Shown: one piece after another, positions 1,986 through 56,886 of the stretch
How positions within the stretch are numbered: the stretch's first letter is position 1
Layout of the letters: each line of letters opens with the position of its first letter
Virus record (IMG/VR): IMGVR_UViG_3300005336_000003
Location: 237-64,236 of that record
DNA length: 64,000 nt
DNA from: a virus
Lineage: Duplodnaviria; Caudoviricetes
Reading direction: 5' to 3' (one strand)
Translations under genes and position numbers: made by a program
The notes under the pieces: generated by a model
Told to the model about the DNA's origin: nothing
Seen by the model: only the letters and a program-made list of their open reading frames with translations
Databases searched by the model: none

Positions 1986-2250
1986 CCACTCTCCCGAAGC
2001 CAACGAGAAGCGGGCAGCCATTCTTCGGCTGCTCGCCGATCGTGGCTGGGTATCGCTCAGCCAGTTCGCGTTCCTGGTAGGATCCGCCTATCCGACAGTC
2101 TTGCGGATGCGAGATGCCGGTCAAATCCAAACCCACAGGGTAGGAGGTATCTACAGGGTCTACTTGGAAGAGTACAACAGATTTCAACGTAGTGGCAACA
2201 GGGAAAGAATAGATGACACATGTGACGAGGAGAGCCTACGTTCTTCATAG
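1942..2250 (+). CDS. Excisionase-like HTH DNA-binding protein (start uncertain)
   Basis: WVSLSQFAFLVG..YPTVLRM..AGQI.THRVGG.YRV matches the HTH_17 pattern; only GTG/TTG starts are available. Confidence 0.6.
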   Translation: MRPAVPVARALRGSNHSPEANEKRAAILRLLADRGWVSLSQFAFLVGSAYPTVLRMRDAGQIQTHRVGGIYRVYLEEYNRFQRSGNRERIDDTCDEESLRSS

Positions 2251-3016
2251 CGGGGGACTCGACAGCTCCACTGCTTTGGCAGTGGCCTGTCATCGGCTCG
2301 AGGCTGAGATCGACGTGATCTCGGTATCGGTGAATTACGGGCAACGTCATCTGGTTGAGACCGGCTATGCCAAGAAGCTCTGCGAGTGTCTCGGCATCGA
2401 GCACATGGCTGTGGACATGGCAAGGCCTCCCAAGTCGATGCTCACCAACAAGGCCGAGGCAGTGCCGAACGTCAGCTACGACGAGATCCAAGGCATGTCT
2501 CCAACCTACGTTCCCTTCCGCAATGGCCAACTGCTGAGCCGTATTGCCGGCATCGCGCAAGCCTGGGTGATGGAAGGTAAGGAGCAGATCCTCGAGAACC
2601 AGGGAGTTGGCGTTGTCGAGGAGCTGATCCGCCTGCATGGATCCTCGGCAGTTAGCCTCCTGCCTGATGGCAAGGTACAGCTGGACGAAGACCGCGAGGC
2701 AACCGTCTGGTTCGGAGCGCATGCAGAAGATGCCCACAACTGGGCGTATCCGGACTGCACTCCGGAGTTTGTCGGTGCGATGGCCAATGCCATCTACATT
2801 GGCACATACCACAAGGTGCGGCTCGTCACACCATTCATCCACTCTCTCAAGAGCGACATCGTCCGTTACGGTGACGAGCTCGCCCTGCCTTTCGAGCTGA
2901 CGTGGAGCTGCTATGTTGGAGGCGACAAGCACTGTGGGATTTGTCCAACCTGCAGGGCGCGCAAGGAAGCGTTCATCCAGGCAGCCGTCAGGGATCCGAC
3001 AGTCTACGCCGCCTGA
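2213..3016 (+). CDS. queC: 7-cyano-7-deazaguanine synthase
   Basis: SGGLDS, YGQRH, TYVPFRN, YPDC and TWSCY..HCGICPTC..R motifs. Confidence 0.95.
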   Translation: MTHVTRRAYVLHSGGLDSSTALAVACHRLEAEIDVISVSVNYGQRHLVETGYAKKLCECLGIEHMAVDMARPPKSMLTNKAEAVPNVSYDEIQGMSPTYVPFRNGQLLSRIAGIAQAWVMEGKEQILENQGVGVVEELIRLHGSSAVSLLPDGKVQLDEDREATVWFGAHAEDAHNWAYPDCTPEFVGAMANAIYIGTYHKVRLVTPFIHSLKSDIVRYGDELALPFELTWSCYVGGDKHCGICPTCRARKEAFIQAAVRDPTVYAA

Positions 3017-3057
3017 CTGTCCTCCACAACCACAACCACCATACAAGGGGACATATC

Positions 3058-3348
3058 ATGAGTGACGGGCGAGTTGACTTGGGAGACCTGGTGAGGGATC
3101 CTATCACGGGGTTCGAAGGCGTGGTCTCAAGCCGTACTGAGTTCTTGTACGGCTGTGTACGATGCGGCGTCACCTCCCAGACGTTGGACAAGGATGGCAA
3201 GGAGCAGATCCTGTCCTTCGACGAGGCAGGGCTGCAGATAGTGGAGGTAGGGAAGTTCAAGCTGAAGCCCAGCAATGTCTCAACGAGGCCGCCAGGAGGG
3301 CCGGAGAGGCGTATCGACAACCTTCCCGAAGCCCCGGCGAGGAGATAG
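3058..3348 (+). CDS. Conserved phage hypothetical protein (SH3-like beta barrel)
   Basis: LGDLVRDPITGFEGVV..R.E.LYGC pattern; ATG at 3058 after AAGGGG. Confidence 0.6.
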   Translation: MSDGRVDLGDLVRDPITGFEGVVSSRTEFLYGCVRCGVTSQTLDKDGKEQILSFDEAGLQIVEVGKFKLKPSNVSTRPPGGPERRIDNLPEAPARR

Positions 3349-3351
3349 CCG

Positions 3352-3552
3352 ATGGGGCCAGACCAGGAAGCTTTGCTGCAGTTCTTCGAGTACAGCCATC
3401 TGCCTGTCGCTCTCCAGGCCGCCTCTCAGCCGTTCCACACTCTGGCTCACCACCTAGTGGAAAGCCTGCCAAGGAATCCGGAGCGTACGACAGCACTGCG
3501 CAAACTGCTCGAGGCCAAGGATTGCGCCGTGCGCGCATCCATCTTCAAGTAG
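3352..3552 (+). CDS. Small helical phage protein, possibly related to Acb2/Tad1 hairpin proteins
   Basis: LQFFEYSHLP..LQ..S.PF..LA..LP..PERT.ALRKLLEAKDCAVRA; GGAG RBS. The functional link is tentative. Confidence 0.5.
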   Translation: MGPDQEALLQFFEYSHLPVALQAASQPFHTLAHHLVESLPRNPERTTALRKLLEAKDCAVRASIFK

Positions 3553-3576
3553 CCCCAACATCAAGTGAGGCCCAGA

Positions 3577-4155
3577 ATGCCGTTTGGAATGAGTCGGCGG
3601 ATTGAGATCGACATGGCTCACCGTGTACCGACACACGGATCGAAATGCTGGAACGTGCATGGTCACCGCTACGTGATCATCGCAGAAGCCCAGTCGCAGG
3701 CATTACAGGAGGGCGGAGAGCAGACGGATATGGTCGTCGACTTCGGTTTCCTGAAGAACGTCATGGTGGGGCAGATCTACGACTTCTGCGACCACGGCAT
3801 GTGTCTATGGATCGACGATCCTTGGCTGGATCGATTCCTCCTGCGACACACCAGTAAGGCTCGCAAGGTCTGCGAGGAGGAAGGCTGGTACTTCGAGCCT
3901 GAAGATAAGGCTCTCGCTCAGACCAAGCTCCTGGTGGTGAATTTCATCCCAACGGCTGAGCGGCTTGCCGAGTTCTGGTTTCGCCGGATGCTGGCAGGAG
4001 TGTCACAGATATCGGGAGGCAAGGCAGCCCTCTCCCAAGTGGTTGTCCAGGAGACTCCCAACGGGATCGCCTATTACCCTCCAACGATGAAAGCCGCTCC
4101 TGGATCGATGTTCACGTCGCTTATCCGGGATAATATGGGGACAACCAATGTCTGA
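3577..4155 (+). CDS. queD: 6-carboxy-5,6,7,8-tetrahydropterin synthase
   Basis: AHR..KCWNVHGHRY, VDFG, DH, PTAE and ET motifs. Confidence 0.92.
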   Translation: MPFGMSRRIEIDMAHRVPTHGSKCWNVHGHRYVIIAEAQSQALQEGGEQTDMVVDFGFLKNVMVGQIYDFCDHGMCLWIDDPWLDRFLLRHTSKARKVCEEEGWYFEPEDKALAQTKLLVVNFIPTAERLAEFWFRRMLAGVSQISGGKAALSQVVVQETPNGIAYYPPTMKAAPGSMFTSLIRDNMGTTNV

Positions 4156-4915
4156 TGACAAGCCCAATATCGGGGGCTATCGTAAGCACCCGGTGATGGA
4201 GATGTTCGGCCCCACAATCCAAGGTGAGGGGATGCTGTGCGGCCAGGTATCGCACTTCATCAGGTTCGGAGGTTGTACCTATCGATGTACCTGGTGCGAT
4301 AGCATGCATGCAGTAGATCCGGATCAGATCAAGGCGCATGCCAAGTACCTGACGGACAACCAGATCATGCAGGCAGTCCACCAGCTCAACCCCTCTCCGT
4401 GGGTCACGCTGTCCGGAGGAGATCCTTGCATCCACGAGCTGCAGGATCTGGTGGTGAGGCTCAGGCATGATGGCTTCAAGATAGCGGTTGAGACCCAAGG
4501 AGTAATGCGCCGGAGGTGGATTCAGTACTGCCAGGCTGTAACAGTATCTCCGAAGCCTCCAAGCTCAGGCATGGCTGGCAATCTCAACAGCGCAACGCTT
4601 GACTGGTACGTGGATAATCTCGAACCTATCAGGCATCTCGGAATACCCGTCCTAAGCTTCAAGGTAGTGGTATTCGATCGCGTGGATCTTGATTGGGCTT
4701 TGCTCCTCCACCAGAGGTATCCCCGAGTCAGGTTCTTCCTCTCGATCGGGACTGACCGGCCTGAAGAGGCCGAAGGTCTGATTCTCACCACACAGGGGAT
4801 CCTGGATCGCTTCAGGACTATCTCCAGTGAGGTGTTGGCCAATCAGGAGTGGCGTAATGTAACAATCCTACCCCAGATGCATGCTTTGCTCTGGGGTCAT
4901 ACTCAAGGAGTCTGA
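4148..4915 (+). CDS. queE: 7-carboxy-7-deazaguanine synthase (radical SAM)
   Basis: FGPTIQGEG, CTYRCTWCD, SGGDP, ETQG, VSPK and LPQMH motifs. Confidence 0.95.
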   Translation: MSDDKPNIGGYRKHPVMEMFGPTIQGEGMLCGQVSHFIRFGGCTYRCTWCDSMHAVDPDQIKAHAKYLTDNQIMQAVHQLNPSPWVTLSGGDPCIHELQDLVVRLRHDGFKIAVETQGVMRRRWIQYCQAVTVSPKPPSSGMAGNLNSATLDWYVDNLEPIRHLGIPVLSFKVVVFDRVDLDWALLLHQRYPRVRFFLSIGTDRPEEAEGLILTTQGILDRFRTISSEVLANQEWRNVTILPQMHALLWGHTQGV

Positions 4916-4917
4916 TC

Positions 4918-5673
4918 GTGGCAATTCGGAAGAACCGGAAGACCTCCACATCGCGCAAGGCTGGCAAGAAGGTAAGCTCTCCTCGGAAGCCCCACAAGAC
5001 CGTCGAGAACTTCGAGACCTTCGATTATGCGCCTGCCGATATGATGGGAGCAGCAGAGGAGACGGCCGGCGAAGAGATCTGGAAGGGAACTCCCGTGCAT
5101 CCCCAGCAGAGCTACCGCGAGGAGCTGATTCGGGACGCCCTGTGGGGAATATTCGGCTCAACCCTGAGCACCGAAGCCTACCAGAAGACTCCTGGGAGGT
5201 TCCTACGATACCTCGGGGAGTTCAACCGTCAATCTGACACCTCCGAAGTATTGGGAGAGCTATTCGAGGGACCGCGAGCCGAGGGGATCCACGGCTTGGT
5301 TGTCCAACGCAACATCCCTTTCCGGATGTGCTGCGAGCACCATCTGCTTCCGGCTGTAGGGAAGGCCTTCCTCGGCTACATCCCCAACACTAAGGTCGTA
5401 GGGCTGAGCAAGCTGGCTCGCCTGGTGGATGCTATCGGCACCAGCCGCCCGAGCATGCAGGAGCTGCTGTGTGAGGAGATCGTCGATACCCTCGACCGCT
5501 ATACCAATGCCAAAGGAGTGATCTGCGTCATCGACTCCGAGCACTCCTGCATGGCTTGCAGGGGAGTCAACGTTCCGGGAGTGTCAACCTCAACCTCATG
5601 CGTGCGGGGAATCTTTCGGGATGTCCCAGCAGCGCGGAGTGAGTTCTTCTCGCTCATCGGCCGGAGGGAGTAG
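4918..5673 (+). CDS. folE: GTP cyclohydrolase I
   Basis: TPGR, MCCEHHLLP, VVGLSKLAR, QE and HSCMACRGV motifs; basic N-terminal extension. Confidence 0.95.
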   Translation: MAIRKNRKTSTSRKAGKKVSSPRKPHKTVENFETFDYAPADMMGAAEETAGEEIWKGTPVHPQQSYREELIRDALWGIFGSTLSTEAYQKTPGRFLRYLGEFNRQSDTSEVLGELFEGPRAEGIHGLVVQRNIPFRMCCEHHLLPAVGKAFLGYIPNTKVVGLSKLARLVDAIGTSRPSMQELLCEEIVDTLDRYTNAKGVICVIDSEHSCMACRGVNVPGVSTSTSCVRGIFRDVPAARSEFFSLIGRRE

Positions 5674-5677
5674 CCAC

Positions 5678-6457
5678 ATGACCCAATTCGCACCTGTTGC
5701 TCCTCCCCAATTGCTACGTGCCCTGAGGGAGCAGGGCGAGCATGTGGTGGGCAGGTACCACCTCTTGCTGGCTCACGATGTAGCAGCCAAGCCCCATGAG
5801 TACAAGGAGCTGCTGCCTCCCAACAGCATGGTGATCATGGACAACAGCATCATCGAGCTGGGCTACCCTGTGACTCCGCAAGTCATGGGGACGGCTCTGA
5901 GTATCGTACCCTCCCAAGTAGTCGTACTTCCTGACGTGATCAGGAAGAAGGACGAGACTCTGGAGCTGTCCTTCAGGGGTGCCGACTTCTTCAGCAACCT
6001 GCTCAACTTCGGTACGCAGCAATTCATGGTCGTTCCTCAAGGCAACTCCCTGGAGGAACTGAAGGAATGTGCCTACGAGATGCGCTACATCGAGGGTGTA
6101 GGCTGTTGGGGAGTCGGGAGGTTCGTGACCGAGATGCTCGGCAGCCGCGCAGAGTTCGTCAAGTGGCTGTGGGAGACTCGGGAGCTGCACCTAGCAGCTC
6201 GCAAGCATGGGCCGTTCATTCACCTGCTTGGGTTCTCCGAGAATATGGAGGATGACATCGCGTGCGCCAAGCTGCCAGGCGTTCTGGGGATCGATTCGGC
6301 TGTCCCAGTACGTATGGGCCAGAACAGGCAGATGATCTCTCGGAAGCAGAAGGCACACGCACCTCGAGGCGATTGGTGGGATACCGCAGTGCCTTTCATC
6401 CATCCGGAGACGGTCGCGAATCTCAGCCTCGTGCGCAGCTGGATCCAATACGGCTAG
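5678..6457 (+). CDS. Divergent TGT/DpdA-like TIM-barrel protein (candidate preQ0 transferase)
   Basis: IMDNS..ELG, VLPDV, VVPQG, IHLLG and GIDS motifs occur in TGT-fold order; directly after folE with GGAG RBS. Confidence 0.7.
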   Translation: MTQFAPVAPPQLLRALREQGEHVVGRYHLLLAHDVAAKPHEYKELLPPNSMVIMDNSIIELGYPVTPQVMGTALSIVPSQVVVLPDVIRKKDETLELSFRGADFFSNLLNFGTQQFMVVPQGNSLEELKECAYEMRYIEGVGCWGVGRFVTEMLGSRAEFVKWLWETRELHLAARKHGPFIHLLGFSENMEDDIACAKLPGVLGIDSAVPVRMGQNRQMISRKQKAHAPRGDWWDTAVPFIHPETVANLSLVRSWIQYG

Positions 6458-6517: not shown

Positions 6518-6802
6518 ATGTCGACTCCTGATACCGAAGAAGCCATCCTAAGGGAGATAGAGTTCCTGGATGTAACATTCCCGGAATACATCGTCGCCGA
6601 GCATGGCAACTTCGTGTATCAGGACTACGACGGCTATTTTGAGATGCTGCCTGCCTGGCGAGCTGCCAGGCTAGCCGAGCTGAAGGAACAACTCGTATGG
6701 CTCAGAACCCGCCCAGTGTCTACCGAAGTACCTTCATCAGCCGATGGGCTCACAACGACCGGGTCATCATCGACGGAGACCCCTCCATCAAAGGAACCGT
6801 AA
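6518..6802 (+). CDS. Hypothetical protein
   Basis: ORF with GGAGG RBS, in operon direction. Confidence 0.5.
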   Translation: MSTPDTEEAILREIEFLDVTFPEYIVAEHGNFVYQDYDGYFEMLPAWRAARLAELKEQLVWLRTRPVSTEVPSSADGLTTTGSSSTETPPSKEP

Positions 6803-6915
6803 CAGGCTTCCGTTGGCACTCTGACGGAGCCCACGAGGTGGAGGTATCCTGGATGCACAACGGAACATCCTATGCTGTTTGGTTTGCCGATAGCCGGCTG
6901 GCGGAGGCTACCTGA
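6697..6915 (+). CDS. Small SH3-like hypothetical protein
   Basis: DRVIIDGD.SIKGTVTG..EVSWMHNG..WF..RL; AAGGA RBS; overlaps the previous ORF by 106 bp. Confidence 0.55.
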   Translation: MAQNPPSVYRSTFISRWAHNDRVIIDGDPSIKGTVTGFRWHSDGAHEVEVSWMHNGTSYAVWFADSRLAEAT

Positions 6916-7121
6916 TGATTGCAGCGATCAGGAGACTCGTCAGGACGTCTTACGGGAGCCACGAACTAGCGCGCGGCGCTTCTGACAGGGTTTCCGCGAG
7001 ATCTGAGCCTCCCGACGTTACCTGCAAGCCCGCAGGGCCGGTGATCTACACGGCTACAAGTGGGGCCGATGTGTTCCCAGCGTTCCTGAAGCGACGCGGC
7101 AGTACTAAGCAGGAGGATCCA

Positions 7122-7361
7122 ATGACCATGGTAGTGGAGTCAGCATCTTTCAAGCGTGACGGGGCTTGGCGCGAGCTGACGTTCATGTACACGAACTACA
7201 AGATGGAGACCGAGCGTCGGCATGTCCTGCCGATGCGTGTCTGGTACGGTAGCTCAGCCTACCATCAAGGTGAGCAGTGGTTCCTGAATGCTCTGGACCT
7301 GGACAAGAACGAGTACCGCAATTTTGCCATGCGTGACATGAAGGACGTAGCCACCCGATGA
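7122..7361 (+). CDS. Stand-alone WYL-domain protein
   Basis: FMYTNYK.E..RR.V.P..VWYG..YH..EQWFL.ALDLDK..YRNFAM; AGGAGG RBS before ATG 7122. An alternative in-frame ATG lies at 6915. Confidence 0.75.
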   Translation: MTMVVESASFKRDGAWRELTFMYTNYKMETERRHVLPMRVWYGSSAYHQGEQWFLNALDLDKNEYRNFAMRDMKDVATR

Positions 7362-10030
7362 AGCAATCCGGGCCGGCTCAGAAATATGAGAGCTGTCTCC
7401 TACCGTGTGAGAACTGCCCATATGGTGGTCCGAAGGTAGGATCAAGAGGAAACCCTAAGGCCAGGGTTGTTTTTGTAGGGGAAGCTCCTGGTACTCAGGA
7501 GATGGTGCACAAGACACCTCTGACGGGCCCATCAGGAGAGGTGTTCTGGAGAACCCTCCCGCTTGCAGTCCAGCTACTGGAGTGGGGTATCGACACCTCA
7601 GATGACATACTGATCCTGAACGCTTGCCAATGCTTACCGCCACGTTCAAAAGACGCCCAGAAGAATATGGCGGCAGTGACAAAAGGAGCGGCTGCATGCC
7701 AATCACGATTGCTTGGGCAGGTTATGGAGCACCCCCGAGACCTGATAGTGGCAATGGGGAACCACGCATTACGTTCACTGACTGGGAACTCTGGCTACAA
7801 GATCACCCAGATTCGGGGACAACTTTTGCCATCTTCGATGGCTCGTATCGGCTTGTTGCCTGTCTTACATCCTGCAGCGCTGTTACGTGGAACAGGGAAT
7901 TATCGGCAGTTCCGGGAGGACATCGCATACTGCTTCGACCTCCTGAACGGAATACCGCCGAAGAAGCCTGTGGTTCCTCGGTGGTTGGTTCTACGTAACG
8001 GATTCCAAGTAAGGCAGCTCGCTAAAGCGTTGAAATCTAAACCGTTTATCGCGTGCGATACGGAGACTGGGGGTTTCAATCAGCTGACCGATGAGGTCCT
8101 GGCGGTTGGGATTTGCGCGGACGCGGACCTTGTTTACATCATCCCTGAGCGGTTGGTGCCTCTCCTGAAGGCTCTATTTGAGGAAGCCGAGGGTAGGTTC
8201 ATCTGGCACAACGGCAAGTTTGATATGCGGTTCATGAAGCGGGAGCTTGGTGAGATAGCCCGCTGCGATGAAGATACCATGCTCCTGTCCTACGCTCTGG
8301 ATGAACAGGGAGGGATTCACGATCTGGAGCAGGTAGGGAACGACCTCATCGGAGCGCCCGACTACAAGCATATGCTCAAACCCTACCTGCCAAACAAGAA
8401 GACCTCTTACCGAGTTATTCCTAAGCCTATTCTATATCGTTACCTGGCTCTCGATACGAGCAATACCAGGCAGGTATTCGACATCCTCAGGGCGAGAGTT
8501 TCCGCTGATCCAAACCTGGAAAAGCTCTACACCAAAGTCCTGATGAAGGCATCTGAGTTCCTGTACAGAGTCGAGACCCAAGGTATTGCCGTATGCCCCA
8601 ACAGGGTGGAAAACCAATCCAAGAGGCTGCAGGGAGAGATCGATGATGCCTATGCAAGGCTGCAAGCTGTGGCTAAGCAGGCCGGATACGTAGGGGAGCT
8701 TAACCCGAATAGTCCCAGGCAGCTAGCTGTAGTCCTGTTTGACCTACTCAAGCTGAAGCCGAAGAGGCCAGGCAATCGCTCGACTGCTAAGGCAGTCCTA
8801 CTTGAGCTCCCTGCGCATCCAGTTATCAAAGGGTTGCAGGACTACCGGAAGGCCAAGAAGGCCAAGAGTACCTATGTAGACTCCCTAGTGCGCAACGTCA
8901 ACATTGATGGAAGAGTCCATGCCACATACCTCATTCACGGGACCCGCAGTGGGCGGCTTTCTTCTCGTGGACCAAACATGCAAAACGTACCGCGCGGGCC
9001 TGCTATCCGCAGTATGTACATGGCCTCAACTGCTCACGTATTCATTAAGGCAGACCTCAATCAGGCTGAATTGCGGTCACTTGCTGTACTCTCGGGAGAC
9101 GAGTACCTGCTGGGAGTGTATGCGCCAGGCAGTAAGAGAAAGCTTCACCATGAGACTGCTGAAGAGTTCTTCCCCGGCTGGACTGCGCGCGGCAGGGATA
9201 AGAATCCTGAAGGCCTAGAGCAGCTGATGAGGGCCAAGGCTGTGAACTTTGGGATTGTGTACGGGAGAACCGCCCCGTCGATTGCCGAGGAGTTCAAGAT
9301 CAGTGTAGGGGAAGCCCAGAAGTTCATCGACAAGTGGGCTAAGCGTAGTCCGAAGGCTTGGGAGTTTATCGGCAAATGCCGAGCTGCACCTTTGAAGGGC
9401 CAGAACTTGGTGACGGTATTCGGCCGCAAGAAGCGGCACTGGATAGTCACGCAAGAGAACCTGATGGGTCTGCAGAACGAGGCTTCCAACTTCCCGCATC
9501 AGTCCATCGCACACGATATCTGCCTACTAGGAGGAGCAAAGGCAGCTCCTATCCTGAGGCCGTTTGGAATCAATCCGGTTAATGAGGTACACGATGAGGT
9601 AATGTTCGAATGCCCAGATATCCCAGAGGTGATAGCCTGGGCTAAGCATGTGATCGTCACCTGTCTAGAGTCGATAGCCCCTGAGTGGGGTCTGACTAAG
9701 ATACCGTTCATAGCCGAAGCCGACGTTGGCCGTAGGTGGTCTATATACAGGAATCCAAGGGAGTTCAGGTATGAATACCAGCCCAGCAATCCAGAAGAGT
9801 GGTACATCCCCAATGAAGCCGTCCTTAGGGCTCTTGCCTCTAGGGATGCGCACGGAGATGTACTGGAAGGTCAGCTCGGGGTGGAGAAACCCGCGCCTAC
9901 CTGGAGTGCCTCTGAGTTGGGCTCTGACGACGATGAGGACGATTCAGACTGGACTTCCGACGACGGCTCGACTGTCTGGGGCTTTGCTCCAACTACAGAC
10001 CGAGATGATCTCTGGCCCGAAGCAACCTAA
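7358..10030 (+). CDS. Family A DNA polymerase with N-terminal family-4 uracil-DNA-glycosylase-like domain and 3'-5' exonuclease
   Basis: UDG: CENC, VFVGEAPG, CLPP, HPAA. Exonuclease: DTET, HNGKFD, YLALD. Polymerase motifs: DLNQAELR, RAKAVNFGIVYG, VHDE. Acidic C-terminal tail. Confidence 0.95.
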   Translation: MKQSGPAQKYESCLLPCENCPYGGPKVGSRGNPKARVVFVGEAPGTQEMVHKTPLTGPSGEVFWRTLPLAVQLLEWGIDTSDDILILNACQCLPPRSKDAQKNMAAVTKGAAACQSRLLGQVMEHPRDLIVAMGNHALRSLTGNSGYKITQIRGQLLPSSMARIGLLPVLHPAALLRGTGNYRQFREDIAYCFDLLNGIPPKKPVVPRWLVLRNGFQVRQLAKALKSKPFIACDTETGGFNQLTDEVLAVGICADADLVYIIPERLVPLLKALFEEAEGRFIWHNGKFDMRFMKRELGEIARCDEDTMLLSYALDEQGGIHDLEQVGNDLIGAPDYKHMLKPYLPNKKTSYRVIPKPILYRYLALDTSNTRQVFDILRARVSADPNLEKLYTKVLMKASEFLYRVETQGIAVCPNRVENQSKRLQGEIDDAYARLQAVAKQAGYVGELNPNSPRQLAVVLFDLLKLKPKRPGNRSTAKAVLLELPAHPVIKGLQDYRKAKKAKSTYVDSLVRNVNIDGRVHATYLIHGTRSGRLSSRGPNMQNVPRGPAIRSMYMASTAHVFIKADLNQAELRSLAVLSGDEYLLGVYAPGSKRKLHHETAEEFFPGWTARGRDKNPEGLEQLMRAKAVNFGIVYGRTAPSIAEEFKISVGEAQKFIDKWAKRSPKAWEFIGKCRAAPLKGQNLVTVFGRKKRHWIVTQENLMGLQNEASNFPHQSIAHDICLLGGAKAAPILRPFGINPVNEVHDEVMFECPDIPEVIAWAKHVIVTCLESIAPEWGLTKIPFIAEADVGRRWSIYRNPREFRYEYQPSNPEEWYIPNEAVLRALASRDAHGDVLEGQLGVEKPAPTWSASELGSDDDEDDSDWTSDDGSTVWGFAPTTDRDDLWPEAT

Positions 10031-10047: not shown

Positions 10048-10338
10048 ATGTCAAGTGACTCTTCACTGGCAAGCCTGAAGAACATCATGCCTGTCAAGGA
10101 TCTGCCCGAGCGTAGCTGCGGCAGGTGCATATACGCCCAGGCAGTAGCCCAGATTGGCGGCCAGGTTGACTTCTCCGTCAGGGAGTGTCACGGTGACGTT
10201 CCGAAGGTCCAGTACTTCCTCATCCCGCCGAAGAAGCAAGGAGAGACGCCAGGAATCATGGAGCATTCTGGCTGGCCGAAGGTGGAATCCAAAGCTCCTG
10301 CATGTCGACACTTCAGCACCCGAAAGGACTCCGAATAA
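10048..10338 (+). CDS. Cys-rich (probable Zn-binding) hypothetical protein
   Basis: CGRC...C.G..P...WP.V....C.HF; AAGGA RBS. Confidence 0.55.
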   Translation: MSSDSSLASLKNIMPVKDLPERSCGRCIYAQAVAQIGGQVDFSVRECHGDVPKVQYFLIPPKKQGETPGIMEHSGWPKVESKAPACRHFSTRKDSE

Positions 10339-10805
10339 TGGCTCGGTATACCTCCTCCTCAATGACCGCCCTCGAGGCTCGTGAGTATCTGGCGTCCTAT
10401 ACTTTCACCCACCACATATCCGCTGCTGCTATCCGGATTGACGAGTTCTGCCGCATGAGCCATGGGCTATCAGCGGCTCCCGGCTGGTGGTCCGATCTGG
10501 ACCACTTCAAGGCCACAGGAGAGATCGTCCCTTCGAACCGCAACTGCGGTGAGCTGATCGCTCTGATCCACAGCGAGATCAGCGAGGCGCTGGAAGGCAA
10601 TCGTACTGAGGCTCCCAGTACCAAAATCCCAGGCTTCACCAACGAGGAGGAGGAGCTGGCCGACGCTCTGCATCGGATCTTCGATTATGCCGGCGCCAAG
10701 GGACTGCGTCTGGGCGAGGCCTATGAGGCAAAGGCCCGCTACAACATGACCCGGGAGGATCACAAGCTGGAGAACCGGGCAGCAAAGGGAGGGAAGCAGA
10801 TATGA
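10338..10805 (+). CDS. MazG-like all-alpha NTP pyrophosphohydrolase
   Basis: LIHSEISEALEG..EEEELADALHRIFDY..KARYN; TAATG coupling to the upstream gene. Confidence 0.8.
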   Translation: MARYTSSSMTALEAREYLASYTFTHHISAAAIRIDEFCRMSHGLSAAPGWWSDLDHFKATGEIVPSNRNCGELIALIHSEISEALEGNRTEAPSTKIPGFTNEEEELADALHRIFDYAGAKGLRLGEAYEAKARYNMTREDHKLENRAAKGGKQI

Positions 10806-14925: not shown

Positions 14926-17853
14926 TTACCTTGACCCGTAGAAGGAGAACGAGATGCCCTTGCCGGTAGGGTCCTGCGCGGTCGGGGCATTGAAGCTGAA
15001 CGTGTCATCCGCGGCAAAGCTTACGTTGGACAGGAACGAGAACGTGGCAATATTGCGACCAGTTGTACCCGAAGGTATTGTGGCAGTCCCGATTGAGATC
15101 CCGTTCTTGTACAAGGTAAACACCGCAGAGTTGGTGAAGGCTACCTCGCAGCTACCGGCACTATTGGTCAGCCCTGAAGGCAATCCGGTAGCGTAGGATA
15201 GCGTGATGAGGAATAGCTCCTCGTTGGGATTCGGCCTTCGATCCGTTAGGGATACGACCGGATTCCACAGGTTCTGCTGGGTGAGAACAGTCCCATCTAC
15301 TCCGGCTGTATGTCCTGAGCTGCCTGCTGCATTCGAGGCAATGAGGAAGTAGGTGTACACGGATCCAGGGCTTAGCCCCGTATCCGTATAGTTCAGATCG
15401 CTGGTGATAGCAAGGGTTGTAGCCGATCCAAAGGCTCCTCCAGGACCTGGAGCCCTAAGCAGGGTGTAGGATAGAACGGCGTCTCCTACAGCATTAGCAT
15501 TCCAGGTGAGAGCAATCTGCCCGATGCCTCCGGTAGTCGAGAGCCCCGTAGGCGTGGAAGGCACTACGATGTTCAGTGTGCCTGAATTGACGACTGCTGA
15601 GGTTAGCCAGGAAGATATGGCCAAACCACTCTGGGATACCGCTCGCACACGAGCCTGATAGCTGGTTGAGGCAACGGCAGGTGATAGGGTGTAGGATACG
15701 GCAGTGGCTCCAACGGAGTTGTCAGTGAACCAGCTTACGCCTCCGTCCCTAGAGAACTGCACCTCATACGAACCCAGCATCGGTCCTGTGCTAGCTGCCC
15801 AACCAAGAGTCATAGCAAGGATGGTGGTAGAGTCAGCCTGGACAACTCGGGAGGCTACCAGAGTTGCGGAGGTAGGAGGAGCAATCGTGAATGCGACGCC
15901 TGTAGGAGTGTACGGGTAAGATGGGACCGTAGCAACATCTTGCTGAGCATGGCCAAACTGGTTGAAGCTGGCAAACTTGAAGTACAGGGGTATTCCAACG
16001 TACTGCTGAGGCAGTGCGTAGACAAAGGCTACCGTCGGATCAATACGGGTCCACTGAACCCCTGAAGTATGGGAAGCAGGAGAGGTATTGTACACTCCAC
16101 GGCGTAGGCCTGTCAGTGAATACTGATCGGGCCCGGTTAAGGTAACTGTGCCATAGGACACGATCTCGCCGTCGATCAGGGAGGCTGTCCTGAATGCATC
16201 GGCATCGGCTGCAGTAACAGCTGTTGAGACTACCGCCCCGCTCTCCGAGGTGTCGATTGCCAGGGTATTGACGTTATCCGGATCCGCATGGTTGGCAAGC
16301 GGGGCAGTCAATACGCCTTGCTGTGAGGGAGTATTGACTACTCCAATCCAACCGAAGTTGACATTGTCCGCGGAGATGTAGACATTGGCTCCTCCCCAAT
16401 TGGGGCCTCCGCTCAAACCGATCCATACCTCGGGCTGTCCATTTGTGACAACCGGGCTTGGTTCGATAATGGCAGGAGGGTTCACATTCCCAGGATCCGC
16501 AAGCACTTCGGGCGGAGGAGTAGACTCGGAAGGCTGGCTAGTGAAGGCCGCTGCTCGACCCGCCCCCAAAGGAAACTCCTCTGCCGTGAGGGACAGGATG
16601 TCATCACTGTCCTCCTCAACAGTCAGGATACGCACAGGGAACCTTGACAGGCCAATCCCATCCTGTGTGAGGGTTACCAGATCCCCAGGCTCTAGAAGCA
16701 CGTACGCGTACGAGAGCTTGAACGAGTAGTTGTTGCGGATGTAGACCGCACGCTGCTTGATCAGCTCCGCCATGATGTTGGCGACGCCGGGATCGCAGAT
16801 CTCGTTGGCCTGAATAATCTGCGACTGCAACTGCCCGTACAGGTCTAGCGAGACCTGATCCTCGGCACGGATAGGTGTGTTATTGTAGGAGTTGGGCCTA
16901 CTGAGGATGTCCAGCTCAACGATATTGTACCCATCGGTTGGATCTGTCCTGTTGACCGTCAACGGCTCATCAGAAGAGGTCGCCTGGACGAAGTCGTCAG
17001 GCCCGAGATCGAACAGGGGGGTAACATTGGCAAGGAACGTGGTAGTGTTGGCGATGATATTGACATCACCCAGAGGGACGAACTTAATCTGGTCGCCTGA
17101 CCAGAAGATGAAGGAGTTGGACAGCTGAGCCCAGCGGGTGATTATGGAAGTCGCCTGCTCCTGCGAGTTCAGATAGGGAGAAGCCCACAAGCTCTGGGCT
17201 TGGCAGTAGTTCTTGTAGTTAGCCCAGCTCGTCGCATCGATGTACGTTGCGTTGGGATCAATCCCATACTGAGGATTGGTGATGAAATCCTGGATGATGT
17301 CAGCAAAGTTCGCATCCGGCAGATGGGATGGCGCAAAGTTCTGGGAGCCTGAGAGGTAGCCATCTACCTCGAAGTTGTGCTGCGGTACAGTCGGAGATGA
17401 GCCCAGATCGTACAGGCTGGAGAACAGATAGGCAGTGCGAGCATAGGACTCTGCATGGGAAGGGAAGTTGCTCGACATCCAGGCAGGAGGAGTCTGGACA
17501 GCCGTACCCGTGAAGAGCGTCAGGTTGAGGGCTGCAAGGGTGGTGGTTGTCTGATCGGACCAGACAGTTGTCACATCCTGGATCGGGCCCTCGCACAGGC
17601 TCAGAATCAGGGCTGTCGAGTACTTGTAGGAGGATGCTCCTCCCTTGCCGCCACCACCACCCTTGCCTCCCTTGCCTCCCGACTTCACAGGAGTGGCAAT
17701 GAAGTTCACGGCATCAATGATGTTGGTGCCTGCTCTGAAGCGGCCCCAGCCAATGGGTATGCAGAGGCCTTGAGAGCTAGTCTGGATATTCAGCCCAGTG
17801 TACTTGGTAACCTGGGTATTGGAGCCCTTGCCGCCTCCGAATATGCCGGCCAT
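14926..17853 (-). CDS. Central tail tip/host-specificity protein (Phage-tail_3, GTA megatron-like) with FN3 repeats
   Basis: IPIGWG, GGKGG linker, LCEGPI, LEPGDLVTL, WGGANVY.S.D, YFKF.SFN.FG; FN3-like C-terminal domains. Confidence 0.88.
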   Translation of the reverse strand: MAGIFGGGKGSNTQVTKYTGLNIQTSSQGLCIPIGWGRFRAGTNIIDAVNFIATPVKSGGKGGKGGGGGKGGASSYKYSTALILSLCEGPIQDVTTVWSDQTTTTLAALNLTLFTGTAVQTPPAWMSSNFPSHAESYARTAYLFSSLYDLGSSPTVPQHNFEVDGYLSGSQNFAPSHLPDANFADIIQDFITNPQYGIDPNATYIDATSWANYKNYCQAQSLWASPYLNSQEQATSIITRWAQLSNSFIFWSGDQIKFVPLGDVNIIANTTTFLANVTPLFDLGPDDFVQATSSDEPLTVNRTDPTDGYNIVELDILSRPNSYNNTPIRAEDQVSLDLYGQLQSQIIQANEICDPGVANIMAELIKQRAVYIRNNYSFKLSYAYVLLEPGDLVTLTQDGIGLSRFPVRILTVEEDSDDILSLTAEEFPLGAGRAAAFTSQPSESTPPPEVLADPGNVNPPAIIEPSPVVTNGQPEVWIGLSGGPNWGGANVYISADNVNFGWIGVVNTPSQQGVLTAPLANHADPDNVNTLAIDTSESGAVVSTAVTAADADAFRTASLIDGEIVSYGTVTLTGPDQYSLTGLRRGVYNTSPASHTSGVQWTRIDPTVAFVYALPQQYVGIPLYFKFASFNQFGHAQQDVATVPSYPYTPTGVAFTIAPPTSATLVASRVVQADSTTILAMTLGWAASTGPMLGSYEVQFSRDGGVSWFTDNSVGATAVSYTLSPAVASTSYQARVRAVSQSGLAISSWLTSAVVNSGTLNIVVPSTPTGLSTTGGIGQIALTWNANAVGDAVLSYTLLRAPGPGGAFGSATTLAITSDLNYTDTGLSPGSVYTYFLIASNAAGSSGHTAGVDGTVLTQQNLWNPVVSLTDRRPNPNEELFLITLSYATGLPSGLTNSAGSCEVAFTNSAVFTLYKNGISIGTATIPSGTTGRNIATFSFLSNVSFAADDTFSFNAPTAQDPTGKGISFSFYGSR

Positions 17854-27925: not shown

Positions 27926-29521
27926 TTAGCTGACCTTGTTGGCGATGTTCGCGATCACGCCCATGCCGAAGTTGGCGTAGACCGCAAGCACCTCCTCCAT
28001 GTAGATGCCGTACTCGCGCTGGCGAGTCCGGAGCGGCCAGTCAATGCGGTAGTAGTCGCGGCGCAGCAGCATCTCCGCAACGTTCGGCACCTCGTTGGAC
28101 TGGTACCACGGCGGCAGATTCTCGCACCACGCGAGGATCGTGCCGGCCGGGATGTCCGGATGCAGCTTGATCGGCAGCTTGTAGCCGCCGTCGGCTGCAT
28201 GGGGGTTGTAGTAGAAGTCCACCACACCACCCGCGACGATGCCGTAGGCCTGGCCAGGAGTCGTCGGAACCTCATAGCGCAGCAGCGGCCCCGAGGAGTT
28301 CGAAAGGCATGCCGTGGTGATGTTCTTCTGCTCCTGCGAGTTCACGTACAGAACGGTCGGCCCGATCTGGTACGTGTCCCACATGGTCTTCAGCATCTCG
28401 TCGATCTCGTTCACCGAGCCGCGACCGGATGCCGAGAGGCCCGTGCCAACGCCATCGGCGGTGTTCGCGAGATACTTGACGTACGCCTGCGCAGGCGTGG
28501 TGTTCGCGTAGAACGGCGCATTGACGTTCAGCGCGCACGACAGCAGTCCATCGAAGGCCAGTCCAGGGTTGCGACTGTTGTCCTGGGTGATGGCCGCGAT
28601 CGACTGCCGGCCTCCCACGATCGCCGTGCTGAGCGTCATGGAAGCCTTGGTGGTGATGGCCTGCAGCGTGGTCGAGCCACTGACCGTACCGACGAACCAC
28701 GCGTACGCCACGGCACCCTGCAGTGGCGTGACCACCGTGATCAGGCTATTGCCTGCGCCGACGACGATGCCTGCCGAGTCCGCGGACTTGTTCGAACTGC
28801 CGCCGTACAGCGTGAAGTTCTTGCCGTCCGCACCGGTGATCACCTTCGAGGTCGCGACTCCGTTCGCCAGGCTGGAGTTCTTGAAGCCCTCGAGGGTGAG
28901 TGCCACCACGTTGACGAGATAGGTGGCCGCCGCCAGCGTTCCGCCGGACCCGGTGTTGCCGGTACCAGTGGGAGTGGCTGGGGTGCCCAACGCCATCGTG
29001 GCATTGCCGCCCAGGATCGCGATCTCCTCCTTGCGCATCGTCTTCTGCAGGAGGCGGAACGTCACCATGGCGTTCTCGTCTTCGAACCCTTCGGCGGCGC
29101 TCTCCGCCTCGAAGGTCAGGTAGTCTTCCTCGCCCAGCGTCACGTAGGAGGCTGCGAGGTTCGCCGTGGTGTACGACATCGTTCCCGAGCGCTGACCTTC
29201 CGGCACCCAACCCATGGCGTCGTATCCGGAGCCGATCAGCGCGCTGACCTGCTTCCAGTGTGCGGCGTCACCAGGGTTCTTCCGCTTGACGCGCGGAATG
29301 CTGTTCCGGAGAGGCGTGATCGTCGGGTAGATGTTCTTCGCCGGCGCCTCGAGGTCGTACCACGTGAGGCCGGTGGAGATCGAGACGCCCTTCGAAAGGG
29401 GCTTCCCGAATCGATCGGTTGGCGCTCCCAGAGACCCCTTCATCATATCCAGGGTCTGTTGGGTGAGCGACAAACCGTTTTGGTTGAACGGTTGCATGTC
29501 TTTCATCCTGTTGAGTTGCAC
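27926..29521 (-). CDS. Major capsid protein
   Basis: 531 aa after the protease; YDLEAPAK.IYP..TPLRN.IPR and Y...WPLRTR..EYG.Y.EEVL motifs; strongest codon bias in the window. Confidence 0.88.
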   Translation of the reverse strand: MQLNRMKDMQPFNQNGLSLTQQTLDMMKGSLGAPTDRFGKPLSKGVSISTGLTWYDLEAPAKNIYPTITPLRNSIPRVKRKNPGDAAHWKQVSALIGSGYDAMGWVPEGQRSGTMSYTTANLAASYVTLGEEDYLTFEAESAAEGFEDENAMVTFRLLQKTMRKEEIAILGGNATMALGTPATPTGTGNTGSGGTLAAATYLVNVVALTLEGFKNSSLANGVATSKVITGADGKNFTLYGGSSNKSADSAGIVVGAGNSLITVVTPLQGAVAYAWFVGTVSGSTTLQAITTKASMTLSTAIVGGRQSIAAITQDNSRNPGLAFDGLLSCALNVNAPFYANTTPAQAYVKYLANTADGVGTGLSASGRGSVNEIDEMLKTMWDTYQIGPTVLYVNSQEQKNITTACLSNSSGPLLRYEVPTTPGQAYGIVAGGVVDFYYNPHAADGGYKLPIKLHPDIPAGTILAWCENLPPWYQSNEVPNVAEMLLRRDYYRIDWPLRTRQREYGIYMEEVLAVYANFGMGVIANIANKVS

Positions 29522-51335: not shown

Positions 51336-53915
51336 ATGAGTCATGCTGTGAGTGGACCTGGTACTCCCCAAAACAGGGTACTAGTGCCGGACGAGATCCT
51401 GAACGACCTGAAGAAGTCCGGACTAGTACCTTCCGACATGAAGATCCGCCAGTTAGGGCCTCAGGAGAGGGCTACCACTGGATGCGGCGTAGCTACTCGA
51501 GGGTATGTAATCCCGTACTTCGAGATGGACGGGCTGATGCTTCCCTTCTATCGGGTCAAGGTATTGAACCCGGACGAGGAAGTAGGAGCGAAGTACAAGC
51601 AGCCCAGATCAACTCCCAACCATATCTACTTCCCACCAGACCTCGAAGATGTGCTGCATACGTGGTGCAAGAAGCACCCATCAACCAAGCTCATCGTTAT
51701 TACCGAGGGTGAGAAGAAGGCTGCCTGTGCAGTCAAGATGGGTATACCCTGCATAGCTTTGGGAGGTGTCGACAGCTGGAGATCCAAGACTATCATCCTA
51801 CCCAAGGAATCGGAGCTCACAGCTACCAAGAAGTCCATCAGAGCAAAGCTGCCTTCGACCGATGTGACCATTCCTGAGATGCAGATGCTTGCACAGGGAT
51901 TTGGATCCTTGATCGACAAGGTCCTACAGCACGGGCTCACGCCGATCATCATCTACGACTCTGACCGGAATGGAACTCTGAAGTCGGAGGTACAGCGAGC
52001 GGCAACCATGCTTGCGTATGAGTTCAGGTACCTAGGCATCAAGACTAGCCAGGTCAAGCAAGTAATCCTCCCTGACATATACACCCTCCGAGATCAGCCT
52101 GACGGAGACCCGAGCAACTATCCCAAGACAGGTCTCGACGACTTCCTGATGGCCCGAGGAGCTGCTCCGCTCATCGACATGCTGATAAAGGCGCACGGGG
52201 ATCCCGAAGCATTCCCTATGCATCCGAATCCTCGAGGCTTCCTGAACGTACACTTGAATGGGCTTCAGGACCGAAGAAGCCTATTGCAGATCTCCAGTGT
52301 GGTACTGAGCGAGCTGGATGCCGCAGGTATCAGGTTCCGAGAGAAGCACAGCGGCAAGCCCTACTACTTTGACCGATCAAGTCACAAGCTCATGCCTGCT
52401 CAGATCGTCAATCGTGGCGGCGAGGTAATGCATGAGACTCCCTTTGGTACGTTACTGTACCAGAAGTTCGGCTTGACTGCGGTGGACAATAAGGTCCTGC
52501 TATTCCTTGCTAGCCAGTTCACGGGTGAGGAGCCTATCAAGGAGGTAACTCCCAGACGTATCCGAACGTTGATCACGGAGAAGGAGGATCCGACAAACCC
52601 GTTTGGCTTAGCTCTGCAGATAAGTGACTCGCAGTTCCTTGCAATCTCTCCCGATCCAAAGAAACCAGTGGAGCTGTGTACCAACGGGACGAAGAGCATC
52701 CTATTTGAGCAGGATCATGTCGAACCCCTCGACGTTGACTATATGTTCGACCTGTTTGACCAGTATCGTACAGAGGCTCCTACCTTAACTCCCTGGTGGA
52801 GAGAGGTCCTTGAGGACACGAATCTGGGGAAGACCTTCCCTGACGTAGAGGGCGGTATAACTACCGTTACGGAAGAGGGAAGGAGGATGCGAGACTATGC
52901 AACCCTCCTATTCTACATCTCTCCGTTCCTGAACCGATGGAAGGGAGCTCAGATGCCAGTCGAGCTCATGATCGGCGAAGCGGGTAGTGGCAAGTCGTCC
53001 ATCTTCAACATGCGTCTACAGGTTATGACAGGGCGGCCTCATCTGAGGAACATCCCGAGTGACCTGAAGGACTGGAACGCCTCCGTCACAAACAGTGGCG
53101 GGCTCCTCGTCTTCGACAACGTCCACTTCACCAAGAGGGACCTTAAGCAGCAGATCAGTGACGAGGTCTGCCGGCTCATCACAGAGCCTGTTCCTCACGT
53201 CGAGCTGCGTAAGTACTTCACCACCAACGAGCTCGTACGGATCCCTGTTGACGTCTCGTTTGCCTTTACTGCTATCAACCAACCGTTCCAGAATGCCGAC
53301 CTCTTCCAGAGAGCCGCCATCTTCCACTTCATCAAGCTTGGGCAAGCTCCGGACGGAGACTGGGTGCTCAAGAAGATCGAGGAGAAGGGTGGCCGTGAGG
53401 CGTGGGTAGCTCATCACCTGGTCTTCCTCCACAGGTTCCTCAGGATCGCAGCACACGAGGGGCCGGGAGGATGGAATCCCGAATACAAGTCCTCCCATCG
53501 CCTGTCGCACTTTGAGCAATGCCTAGAGATCGCAGGCCGCATCCTAGGCATTAAGGCTGAATGGGCTGGAGAGGTAATCCAGAAGACTCAGGATCGGACC
53601 CTCACAGAGGCTGACTGGACGTTTGAGGCTATTACCTGCTTTGTCACGGAGATGCTCGAGAGCAATCCAGGCATCAGGTTCATGGCAAGAGACGTCTACG
53701 AGTGGGGATTAGGCCAGACGGACTTCTGCGAGAACCCTATCATGAGCAATGTGCGCAAGCTCGGGAGGTATATGGCAAACCATAACCACCAACTCATGCA
53801 GAGTCTGGGAATCATTCCAGCAGGCATAGCAGGTAATGCCATGAAGTACCGGCTGGTAATCAGTGACAAGACTAAGGAGCGTTACGGAGTTAAGATCGAT
53901 GACAAACCGGCCTGA
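51336..53915 (+). CDS. Primase-helicase (DUF3854-type TOPRIM plus P-loop NTPase)
   Basis: KY.QP, ITEGEKKA, LGGV.SW, YDSD, K.GLDDFL; Walker A GEAGSGKS; FDNV. Confidence 0.88.
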   Translation: MSHAVSGPGTPQNRVLVPDEILNDLKKSGLVPSDMKIRQLGPQERATTGCGVATRGYVIPYFEMDGLMLPFYRVKVLNPDEEVGAKYKQPRSTPNHIYFPPDLEDVLHTWCKKHPSTKLIVITEGEKKAACAVKMGIPCIALGGVDSWRSKTIILPKESELTATKKSIRAKLPSTDVTIPEMQMLAQGFGSLIDKVLQHGLTPIIIYDSDRNGTLKSEVQRAATMLAYEFRYLGIKTSQVKQVILPDIYTLRDQPDGDPSNYPKTGLDDFLMARGAAPLIDMLIKAHGDPEAFPMHPNPRGFLNVHLNGLQDRRSLLQISSVVLSELDAAGIRFREKHSGKPYYFDRSSHKLMPAQIVNRGGEVMHETPFGTLLYQKFGLTAVDNKVLLFLASQFTGEEPIKEVTPRRIRTLITEKEDPTNPFGLALQISDSQFLAISPDPKKPVELCTNGTKSILFEQDHVEPLDVDYMFDLFDQYRTEAPTLTPWWREVLEDTNLGKTFPDVEGGITTVTEEGRRMRDYATLLFYISPFLNRWKGAQMPVELMIGEAGSGKSSIFNMRLQVMTGRPHLRNIPSDLKDWNASVTNSGGLLVFDNVHFTKRDLKQQISDEVCRLITEPVPHVELRKYFTTNELVRIPVDVSFAFTAINQPFQNADLFQRAAIFHFIKLGQAPDGDWVLKKIEEKGGREAWVAHHLVFLHRFLRIAAHEGPGGWNPEYKSSHRLSHFEQCLEIAGRILGIKAEWAGEVIQKTQDRTLTEADWTFEAITCFVTEMLESNPGIRFMARDVYEWGLGQTDFCENPIMSNVRKLGRYMANHNHQLMQSLGIIPAGIAGNAMKYRLVISDKTKERYGVKIDDKPA

Positions 53916-56671: not shown

Positions 56672-56886
56672 AAGATCCTGATTGGCCCGAGTGCACCAGA
56701 AGAACGAGTGATAGATGCGAAGGGGATGTAAATCCTGTACGATGGTACCTAGGCTATCACTGGTGCTTAGCTTGTGCTGACGGGCCAAAGACGTACGTAT
56801 CCGTACAGATGCACAAGTCAAACGCAGTGCTTGTAACTAGCCGTGAGGAATTGAAGTATGTCGGAGTCAAGACCCCCCGAGAGTAG
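56665..56886 (+). CDS. CTG-initiated C4 zinc-finger protein (TraR/DksA-like), absent from the ORF track
   Basis: GGAGGA-6nt-CTG; translation MVEDPDWPECTRRTSDRCEGDVNPVRWYLGYHWCLACADGPKTYVSVQMHKSNAVLVTSREELKYVGVKTPRE. Confidence 0.7.
   Translation: MVEDPDWPECTRRTSDRCEGDVNPVRWYLGYHWCLACADGPKTYVSVQMHKSNAVLVTSREELKYVGVKTPRE

Follow-up and report, generated by a model that had tools for sequence, protein, structure and literature searches.

The window analysed here is a stretch of 64,000 nucleotides from the IMG/VR virus record IMGVR_UViG_3300005336_000003 (Caudoviricetes), and it encodes, at 5678–6457, a 259-aa protein that is probably a transglycosylase of the DpdA3 type. This enzyme would place the deazaguanine preQ0 (7-cyano-7-deazaguanine) in the DNA of the phage and protect it from restriction, possibly by replacement at every G. 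The genome carries an intact preQ0 pathway, the protein encoded directly after it is a homologue of DpdA3 with the fold of tRNA-guanine transglycosylases (TGTs), and its gene is tightly linked, here and in relatives, to the gene of a DNA polymerase. From these observations we infer the exchange of guanine for preQ0, DNA as the substrate and 2'-deoxy-preQ0 (dPreQ0) as the end product; that the replacement may be complete is suggested by measured relatives only. The record is 64,236 bp long, has direct terminal repeats and is rated 100% complete; with positions 237–64236 of it, the window is in effect a whole tailed-phage genome of 64.2 kb. The genes on which the proposal is built are the following.

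2213–3016, plus strand: queC, preQ0 (7-cyano-7-deazaguanine) synthase, 267 aa (PF06508, E 9e-47; phrog_1550).
3565–4155, plus strand: queD, 6-carboxytetrahydropterin synthase, 196 aa including an insertion within the protein (PF01242, PTPS, E 5e-22).
4148–4915, plus strand: queE, radical S-adenosylmethionine (radical-SAM) 7-carboxy-7-deazaguanine synthase (TIGR03365, E 7e-70; 235 bits, the cut-off being 206 bits).
4918–5673, plus strand: folE, GTP cyclohydrolase I (PF01227, E 1e-43, residues 79–247).
5678–6457, plus strand: DpdA3-like transglycosylase, 259 aa, single TIM barrel (AlphaFold2 model, Foldseek, BLASTP and profile matches to DpdA3; putative catalytic residues D55, D86 and D206).
7358–10030, plus strand: polA, family A DNA polymerase that has a UDG-superfamily domain at its N-terminus as well as a 3'-5' exonuclease (PF00476; PF03167, E 3e-20; PF01612).

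FolE, QueD, QueE and QueC together convert GTP into the free base preQ0. A first-pass annotation, made from the sequence without database searches, had reported the four genes as intact, and the Pfam, NCBIfam and PHROG matches bear this out: all four lie uninterrupted on the plus strand, and the pathway is complete. All four enzymes score above the Pfam cut-offs, while the NCBIfam equivalog cut-off was passed by QueE only; for QueC, QueD and FolE the correct NCBIfam families ranked first yet remained below their equivalog cut-offs (QueC with TIGR00364 at E 9e-41 and 139.6 bits, the cut-off being 150.3 bits; QueD with TIGR03367 at E 2e-16). The folE reading frame opens with a GTG at 4918 that abuts the queE stop, and a basic Lys/Ser-rich stretch of about 75 residues (4918–5150) precedes the catalytic domain; this stretch either genuinely extends the protein or reflects a misplaced start, in which case translation would begin at an internal Met further downstream.

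Regarding the steps beyond preQ0, QueF (PF14489) had no match anywhere in the 64,236-bp record. Pfam scans of 84 further open reading frames (ORFs), whose complete lists held 1, 14 and 10 families, returned no QueF, ArcS, amidotransferase, formyltransferase or DUF3109, and no recognisable base-modifying enzyme appeared among the 93 ORFs scanned with Pfam. QueC, at 267 aa, carries no amidotransferase or other added domain. Within the limits of these searches, the earlier statement that queF, arcS and gat-queC are missing holds, and preQ0 is the last base that the visible genes can make. Because queF, arcS, an amidotransferase, dpdL, dpdM and dpdN are absent, dPreQ0 is the predicted final base.

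The transglycosylase ORF starts with the ATG at 5678, 4 nt past the folE stop codon (TAG, 5671–5673), with a GGAGG motif at 5663–5667, 10 nt upstream; this start was preferred to the upstream ATG at 5621 because homologues begin at the same residue. As first described, the ORF directly follows folE and carries TGT motifs, which proved to be invariant or nearly so in an alignment of 38 family sequences. The protein had no Pfam, NCBIfam or PADLOC model match even at E<=10 and no sequence match in the PDB, and the only match among PHROGs was a weak one to the unnamed phrog_20335 (E 0.0026).

The predicted structure was more informative. An AlphaFold2 model built on the 38-sequence alignment (pLDDT 94.1, pTM 0.91) shows eight alternating strands and helices that form a barrel, and in a Foldseek search of the PDB all 50 matches listed were TGTs of bacterial, archaeal or murine origin, with a best E value of 4.5e-8 and a TM-score normalised to the query of 0.68. 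A TGT-like barrel, on which the original interpretation depended, is thus present in the model. When viral models were searched instead, the phiST protein M4SLA5 ranked third (E 4.8e-12, TM 0.74/0.74), better than any TGT, and the annotated phage TGT and DpdA proteins ranked after it. The protein is shorter than the 375-aa E. coli TGT, with only 53 residues beyond D206. Neither the 38-sequence family alignment nor a set of six DpdA3-like sequences has a conserved Cys, so the structural Zn site (CxCxxC...H) was found in neither, in agreement with the lack of a Zn-binding tail noted at first.

To place the protein among the DpdA groups, we used the definitions of Cui, Hutinet et al., NAR 2023 (PMC10516641), who recognised the distant TGT/DpdA-like nature of DpdA3 by HHpred to PF01702, with 9g_00003 representing DpdA1, Rosebush gp2 DpdA2, phiST CGPG_00065 and its CP220 homologue DpdA3 and HVTV1_69 DpdA4, together with the E. 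coli TGT. BLASTP aligned the 259-aa protein to phiST with 23% identity over 239 residues (E 1e-6) and to CP220 with 26% identity over 222 residues (E 5e-7), while these two founders of DpdA3 match each other with 22% identity (E 7e-6); nothing significant was obtained against DpdA1, DpdA2, DpdA4 or TGT (E>2 for 9g and Rosebush). A hidden Markov model (HMM) of the family gave 92.6 bits for BSP7_057 of a Bacillus phage, 46.7 for CP220, 42.2 for phiST and 37.9 for the Chryseobacterium phage MA9V-3, against 0.8 for TGT, 0.5 for DpdA4 and -2.8 for DpdA2, and hhalign aligned the family with phiST at 97.3% probability. Run over whole genomes, the family HMM picked out exactly one gene in each of five DpdA3-type phages (CP220, phiST, MA9V-3, BSP7 and StAshley), and it matched nothing in the genomes of 9g, CAjan, Rosebush, HVTV-1 and ACP17. 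The last of these, an Acidovorax phage, is credited with dpdL and dpdA in PMC10516641 and gave no family HMM match. With plain BLASTP at E<=1e-3, 158 of 232 family proteins match CP220 and 116 match phiST. The 259-aa protein and the DpdA3-type proteins compared with it are all 259–266 aa long.

The model of DpdA4, PF20314 (DUF6610), did not match the 259-aa protein at E<=10, whereas the control HVTV1_69 matched at E 2.7e-56; weak sub-threshold matches to it, over the HLLG...D region, were seen in BSP7, CP220 and one clade member (P0015). In a quick maximum-likelihood tree of 52 rows, comprising every fifth family protein and the references, a single branch (SH-aLRT 94) sets apart the clade of the window protein, which has 48 rows, with BSP7, CP220 and phiST plus MA9V-3 on separate long branches, the placement of which the tree program warns is unsure.

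We considered naming a new subfamily, 'DpdA5', and rejected it, the distances to phiST and CP220 being equal to the distance between those two. Since the 259-aa protein is as similar to the founders as they are to each other, we file it as a DpdA3 member in the broad sense, within which it sits in a separate deep clade. Here our results depart from the first-pass annotation, which had proposed a divergent subfamily comparable to DpdA3 and DpdA4: by BLASTP, hhalign, the Foldseek comparison with phiST, length and gene position, the protein falls within the span of DpdA3. The preQ0 pathway, the Zn-less TGT fold and the DN[SG] motif in place of DSG stand, and its novelty as a further subfamily does not.

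The active sites of TIM barrels are located at the C-terminal ends of the strands. In the AlphaFold2 model, D55, D86, H182/G185 and D206 occupy these ends on strands 3, 4, 7 and 8. Invariant residues in the 38-sequence family alignment are D55, N56, P85, D86, Q121, H182, G185, G204-I205-D206-S207 and P210, and in a comparison of six DpdA3-like sequences that represent four deep lineages they are D55, N56, D86, T94, G145, H182, L184, G185 and D206. A non-significant but colinear hhalign alignment to the E. coli TGT pairs D86 with D143, Q121 with Q187, and D206-x3-P-x-R with the nucleophile motif D264-x3-P-x-R. In Salmonella DpdA, D95 acts as acid/base, D130 reads the base and D256 is the nucleophile, and these three Asp are invariant in TGT and DpdA alongside a structural Zn site (PMC10164549). 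The spacing 55/86/206 is compatible with this three-Asp pattern, and we regard the three residues as putatively catalytic. DpdA1 of 9g, DpdA2 of Rosebush and the E. coli TGT have a D-S-G motif; the DNS noted instead in the window protein was confirmed against all three. Because D-N-[SG] occurs in all six DpdA3-like proteins, it is a signature of the DpdA3 group and not a quirk of the gene at 5678–6457.

By analogy with TGT and bacterial DpdA, the enzyme would work by double displacement with the free preQ0 that FolE, QueD, QueE and QueC would supply from GTP. D206 would attack C1' and guanine would leave, with D55 as general acid/base and D86 and Q121 reading the base; preQ0 would then resolve the covalent intermediate, so that the phage DNA would contain 2'-deoxy-preQ0. 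Judging from relatives, G replacement could be complete and would shield the DNA from restriction. The DpdA3 phages that have been measured are CP220, phiST and a Flavobacterium phage, the last two with roughly 302,000 and 345,000 modified bases in every 10^6 nucleotides (PMC10516641), and because every G is replaced in all three DpdA3 phages analysed, replacement may be complete in the window phage as well.

The association with polA was assessed in relatives. A word-indexed search yielded 480 proteins at E<=1e-3 from 1072 candidates, and an exhaustive HMMER search yielded representatives of at least 1109 clusters at 50% identity, of which 558 have E<=1e-10; nearly all family proteins are about 250 aa long. 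None of the 120 matches listed from the 480 has a precomputed Pfam domain, and one family protein had been named 'queuine/archaeosine tRNA-ribosyltransferase' by its source. The family is a deep, almost wholly virus-borne clade whose members are mostly labelled hypothetical. A possible look-alike cluster, with mostly bacterial members, also appears in a protein atlas. In the contigs of 185,579 species genomes, a scan that needs exact motif patterns and may miss divergent copies found one relative locus, which has the same gene order and lies on a 59-kb phage-like contig of a metagenome-assembled genome.

Gene context was examined in 75 IMG/VR loci, with partner genes sought by tblastn. In 74 of them polA follows the DpdA3-like gene, with a median gap of 102 nt between the matches, and the contig of the 75th stops inside the gene. 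FolE was detected in 68 loci, QueE in 67, QueC in 54 and QueD in 39; where at least 5 kb of upstream sequence is available (52 loci), the counts are 50 for QueE, 49 for FolE, 46 for QueC and 29 for QueD, which is probably undercounted by tblastn because it is short and divergent. Neither QueF (HVTV-1 and E. coli queries) nor DpdL was found in the 75 loci or in the window, although remote forms could be missed with such distant queries. The same gene order is present in the isolates StAshley and MaInes (Brevundimonas) and BSP7 (Bacillus).

Since the alignments of 73 of the 74 downstream polymerases begin within the first 60 residues, these polymerases include the UDG-like N-terminal domain. This glycosylase-like domain might conceivably take part in the base exchange. 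A complex prediction for the 259-aa protein with PolA residues 1–430 (UDG and exonuclease domains) scored 0.06 and gave no answer. The window PolA also has a strongly acidic, Trp-rich C-terminal tail. In BSP7, the polymerase (6680–9583) is annotated as two ORFs, and its alignment to the window PolA falls into two parts, with the break at residue 633/635; polA may thus be split or interrupted in that phage.

With respect to known systems, the protein resembles DpdA3 of phiST and CP220 in being a single barrel of about 260 aa with D-N-[SG], D, H-x-L-G and D-[ST] motifs and no Pfam model, in its significant pairwise and profile similarity, and in the location of its gene between deazaguanine genes and a DNA polymerase. 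It differs from them in its low identity (23–26%) and separate clade, and in being accompanied by a full preQ0 pathway without queF, dpdL or dpdN; likewise, the predicted base, dPreQ0, differs from the bases measured in DpdA3 phages. With bacterial DpdA and TGT it would share the TIM barrel and, in matching order and at similar intervals, the Asp trio (residues 55/86/206, compared with 95/130/256 for Salmonella DpdA and 89/143/264 for the E. coli TGT), whereas it does not match their models (PF23859, PF01702), has no Zn site, is about 60–120 residues shorter and shows DN[SG] in place of DSG. The DpdA1 and DpdA2 cassettes of Queuovirinae and mycobacteriophages (9g, CAjan and Rosebush) also combine phage folE, queD, queE and queC with a transglycosylase and replication genes, yet their enzymes have no significant similarity to the window protein and replace 0.1–30% of G, at motifs. 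DpdA4 (PF20314/DUF6610) of Halovirus HVTV-1 is another distant TGT-like enzyme encoded beside que genes, but it has 386 aa, belongs to archaeal viruses and is recognised by the PF20314 model, which does not match the 259-aa protein.

The closest cultured relatives are the phages vB_BpoS-StAshley and vB_BpoS-MaInes (ON529865, ON529866), which gave the only tblastn matches among GenBank phages, with 32.6% identity over the full length. They share the order queC-queD-queE-(orf)-gene-polA and also encode a phosphoribosyltransferase like the xanthine-guanine enzyme (XGPRT), there beside folE; they differ in having folE after polA, near genes for ribonucleotide reductase and deoxynucleoside monophosphate (dNMP) kinase, and their homologues are annotated as 'hypothetical protein'. 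The words deazaguanine and queuosine do not occur in the paper describing them (PMC10070969), and no Brevundimonas phage is named in the main text of PMC10516641. In the former study, all contigs of a winter single-stranded DNA ('ssDNA') virome, prepared by treatment with a nuclease specific for double-stranded DNA (dsDNA), matched the dsDNA phages StAshley and MaInes, which the authors attribute to carry-over (PMC10070969). It is possible that nuclease-resistant modified DNA accounts for their presence there, a possibility that we mention as a lead only.

Several points weigh against the proposal that preQ0 is inserted into DNA. PF01702 (TGT), PF23859 and the PADLOC DpdA models all fail to match the 259-aa protein; PF23859 and the PADLOC models give little or no match to 9g and Rosebush either, so that their misses carry little information. 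Genome searches with PF01702 and PF23859 were likewise blank for 9g and Rosebush, although both phages have annotated DpdA/TGT homologues, and count for little. The family HMM reaches the TGTs of the PDB with an E value of 1.4 only, and hhalign of the family against the E. coli TGT gives 1.3% probability. Because sequence models give no direct homology, the relation to TGT and DpdA rests on the fold and on the bridge provided by DpdA3. The protein is without the Zn subdomain common to TGT and bacterial DpdA and without an obvious element for holding DNA. Considering the group as a whole, DpdA3 proteins were never active in the E. coli test system of the authors who defined it (PMC10516641), and because these attempts failed, the function of all DpdA3 proteins rests on inference. 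The same authors regard DpdA3 as 'unlikely to insert preQ0', pointing to phiST and Campylobacter phages without the full pathway (PMC10516641), and given this argument preQ0 as the substrate is an extrapolation; its only support is the presence of queC, together with a Flavobacterium phage in which DpdA3 occurs with queC and queF. Palindromes containing G or C occur in the window at a median observed/expected ratio of 0.985, which indicates no general avoidance (counts of AT-only palindromes are too small); this would be compatible with a protected genome and is too weak to count as evidence. Finally, two small ORFs inside the cassette could change the final base.

This last point leads to the alternative that survives best, although we consider it unlikely: a DpdA3-type DNA transglycosylase with a final base other than preQ0, such as dADG or a derivative, made with the help of the ORFs at 3052–3552 or 6518–7361. 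The annotated genes in these regions are the following.

3052–3348, plus strand: ORF of 98 aa within the cassette, function unassigned (phrog_16275, E 4e-14; no Pfam match).
3352–3552, plus strand: ORF of 66 aa within the cassette, function unassigned (phrog_1761, E 9e-28; also phrog_5120).
6915–7361, plus strand: accessory WYL-domain protein, encoded after the transglycosylase gene and before polA (PF13280, E 6e-6; in 2 of 75 loci).

Both small phage ORFs sit between queC and queD and were absent from the first-pass annotation. The QueC reaction itself passes through an ADG intermediate, and the presence within the cassette of two conserved ORFs without assigned function would leave room for a further step. 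Moreover, every DpdA3 phage analysed so far has dADG, dDG or fdPreQ1, not dPreQ0 (PMC10516641). On the other side, the candidate ORFs are small (66–148 aa) and rarely accompany the cassette: by tblastn, five of the 75 related loci have the 66-aa ORF, which four of these carry between queC and queD, two have the WYL gene and none has the 98-aa ORF. No recognisable modifying enzyme is encoded by any scanned ORF.

Slightly less probable again is a second alternative, in which the barrel would perform the same chemistry on free dGMP or dGTP, a substrate question that the first-pass annotation had fairly raised. The product would be phosphorylated to the triphosphate by kinases and built into DNA during replication by the adjoining, co-transcribed and UDG-fused polymerase, which would account for complete replacement. 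Complete G replacement would be easier to achieve before replication, the Zn subdomain has been lost with no additional nucleic-acid-binding element, and polA adjoins the gene in 74 of 75 loci. In addition, the ADG nucleoside has been detected in the cytoplasm of cells infected with CP220, action of DpdA3 on DNA is never demonstrated in PMC10516641, and the phiST deazaguanine cluster holds a MazG/dUTPase-like gene (PMC10516641). The window genome has genes that could serve such a route:

10302–10805, plus strand: MazG-like nucleotide pyrophosphatase, just downstream of polA, accessory (phrog_5658, E 7e-39).
55350–55949, plus strand: P-loop kinase-like protein (AAA_28), accessory (PF13521, E 1.5e-13; phrog_2107, 'thymidylate kinase').
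56858–57352, plus strand: XGPRT-like phosphoribosyltransferase, accessory (PF00156, E 1e-8; PRK09177, E 4e-24, below the cut-off; E. coli XGPRT 1a98, E 8e-15).

These helper genes do not belong to the core, which argues against the nucleotide route. In searches that each used a single protein query and could miss distant homologues, the XGPRT-like gene and the MazG-like gene each occurred in 6 of 24 large related contigs; in the 14 contigs with a completeness of 90% or more they occurred 3 and 4 times, respectively, and both were rejected as core partners. To our knowledge, no TGT-fold enzyme acts on mononucleotides, and polynucleotides are the substrate of all characterised members of the superfamily. 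The authors who described DpdA3 likewise favour insertion after replication (PMC10516641). We prefer direct exchange in DNA.

The XGPRT-like gene lies directly after folE in 6 related IMG/VR loci and in StAshley (15302–15769), has a homologue in phiST (28221–28637), and occurs in 2 of 5 DpdA3-type isolates and 0 of 4 DpdA1/2/4 phages. One conjecture is that the enzyme salvages the guanine released by the exchange, back to GTP for FolE, or that it activates a deazapurine; a link of the MazG-like pyrophosphatase to the modification is only conjecture.

By far the weakest alternative takes the cassette for an auxiliary metabolic module, which would increase queuosine precursors or modify the tRNA of the host and leave phage DNA unmodified: the fold is indeed that of tRNA-guanine transglycosylases and phage que genes have been discussed as translation-tuning genes (PMC8265664), but this is very improbable for a protein without a Zn/tRNA-binding subdomain or a PF01702 match, encoded in a genome with zero tRNA genes, adjoined by polA and not by translation genes in 74 of 75 loci, related to the DpdA3 of phages that have modified DNA (PMC10516641), and found at a single, itself phage-like, locus in the contigs of 185,579 species genomes.

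Replacement of guanine to escape restriction is an already known strategy, and most likely the window shows it in a large unannotated branch of DpdA3. With at least 1109 clusters at 50% identity, the DpdA3 group is far larger than the few published isolates indicate. The signature of the clade, a protein of about 260 aa with DN[SG]...PD...Q-G...H-L-L-G...D-[ST] whose gene immediately precedes a UDG-fused polA, could serve to flag phages with DNA that is likely to resist restriction enzymes, some nucleases and some sequencing chemistries. The cultured members StAshley and MaInes make both DpdA3 activity and complete dPreQ0 substitution directly testable. If the nucleotide-pool route were true, this would be the first TGT-fold enzyme to act on nucleotides and a new route to full replacement beside those of dZ and hmC, and a large uncultivated clade would have genomes in which every G is dPreQ0, set before or during replication.

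Regarding the genomic setting of the cassette, the early and replication genes are on the plus strand, where they begin near 38.1 kb, extend across the window end and continue to about 11.2 kb, and the minus strand between 11.3 and 37.9 kb carries the lysis, tail and head genes. In this structural module, Pfam scans identified a portal protein, a GH108 lysin and a tail set similar to that of the Rhodobacter capsulatus gene transfer agent (DUF2460, Phage_BR0599, Phage-tail_3 and Rcc01698_C); the Rhodobacter-like tail genes and the lysin both lie within 11273–37946. The gene-transfer-agent-like tail module and the Brevundimonas phage relatives hint at an alphaproteobacterial host. A megablast search of the first 20 kb against 50,697 GenBank phage records returned no relative. 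Further members of the replication module are an 859-aa protein containing DUF3854 (51336–53915), an ATP-dependent DNA ligase (58132–59142), a nucleotidyltransferase (60570–61193; phrog_1614, with a weak match to the poly(A) polymerase head domain) and an SNF2-type helicase (61212–62615).

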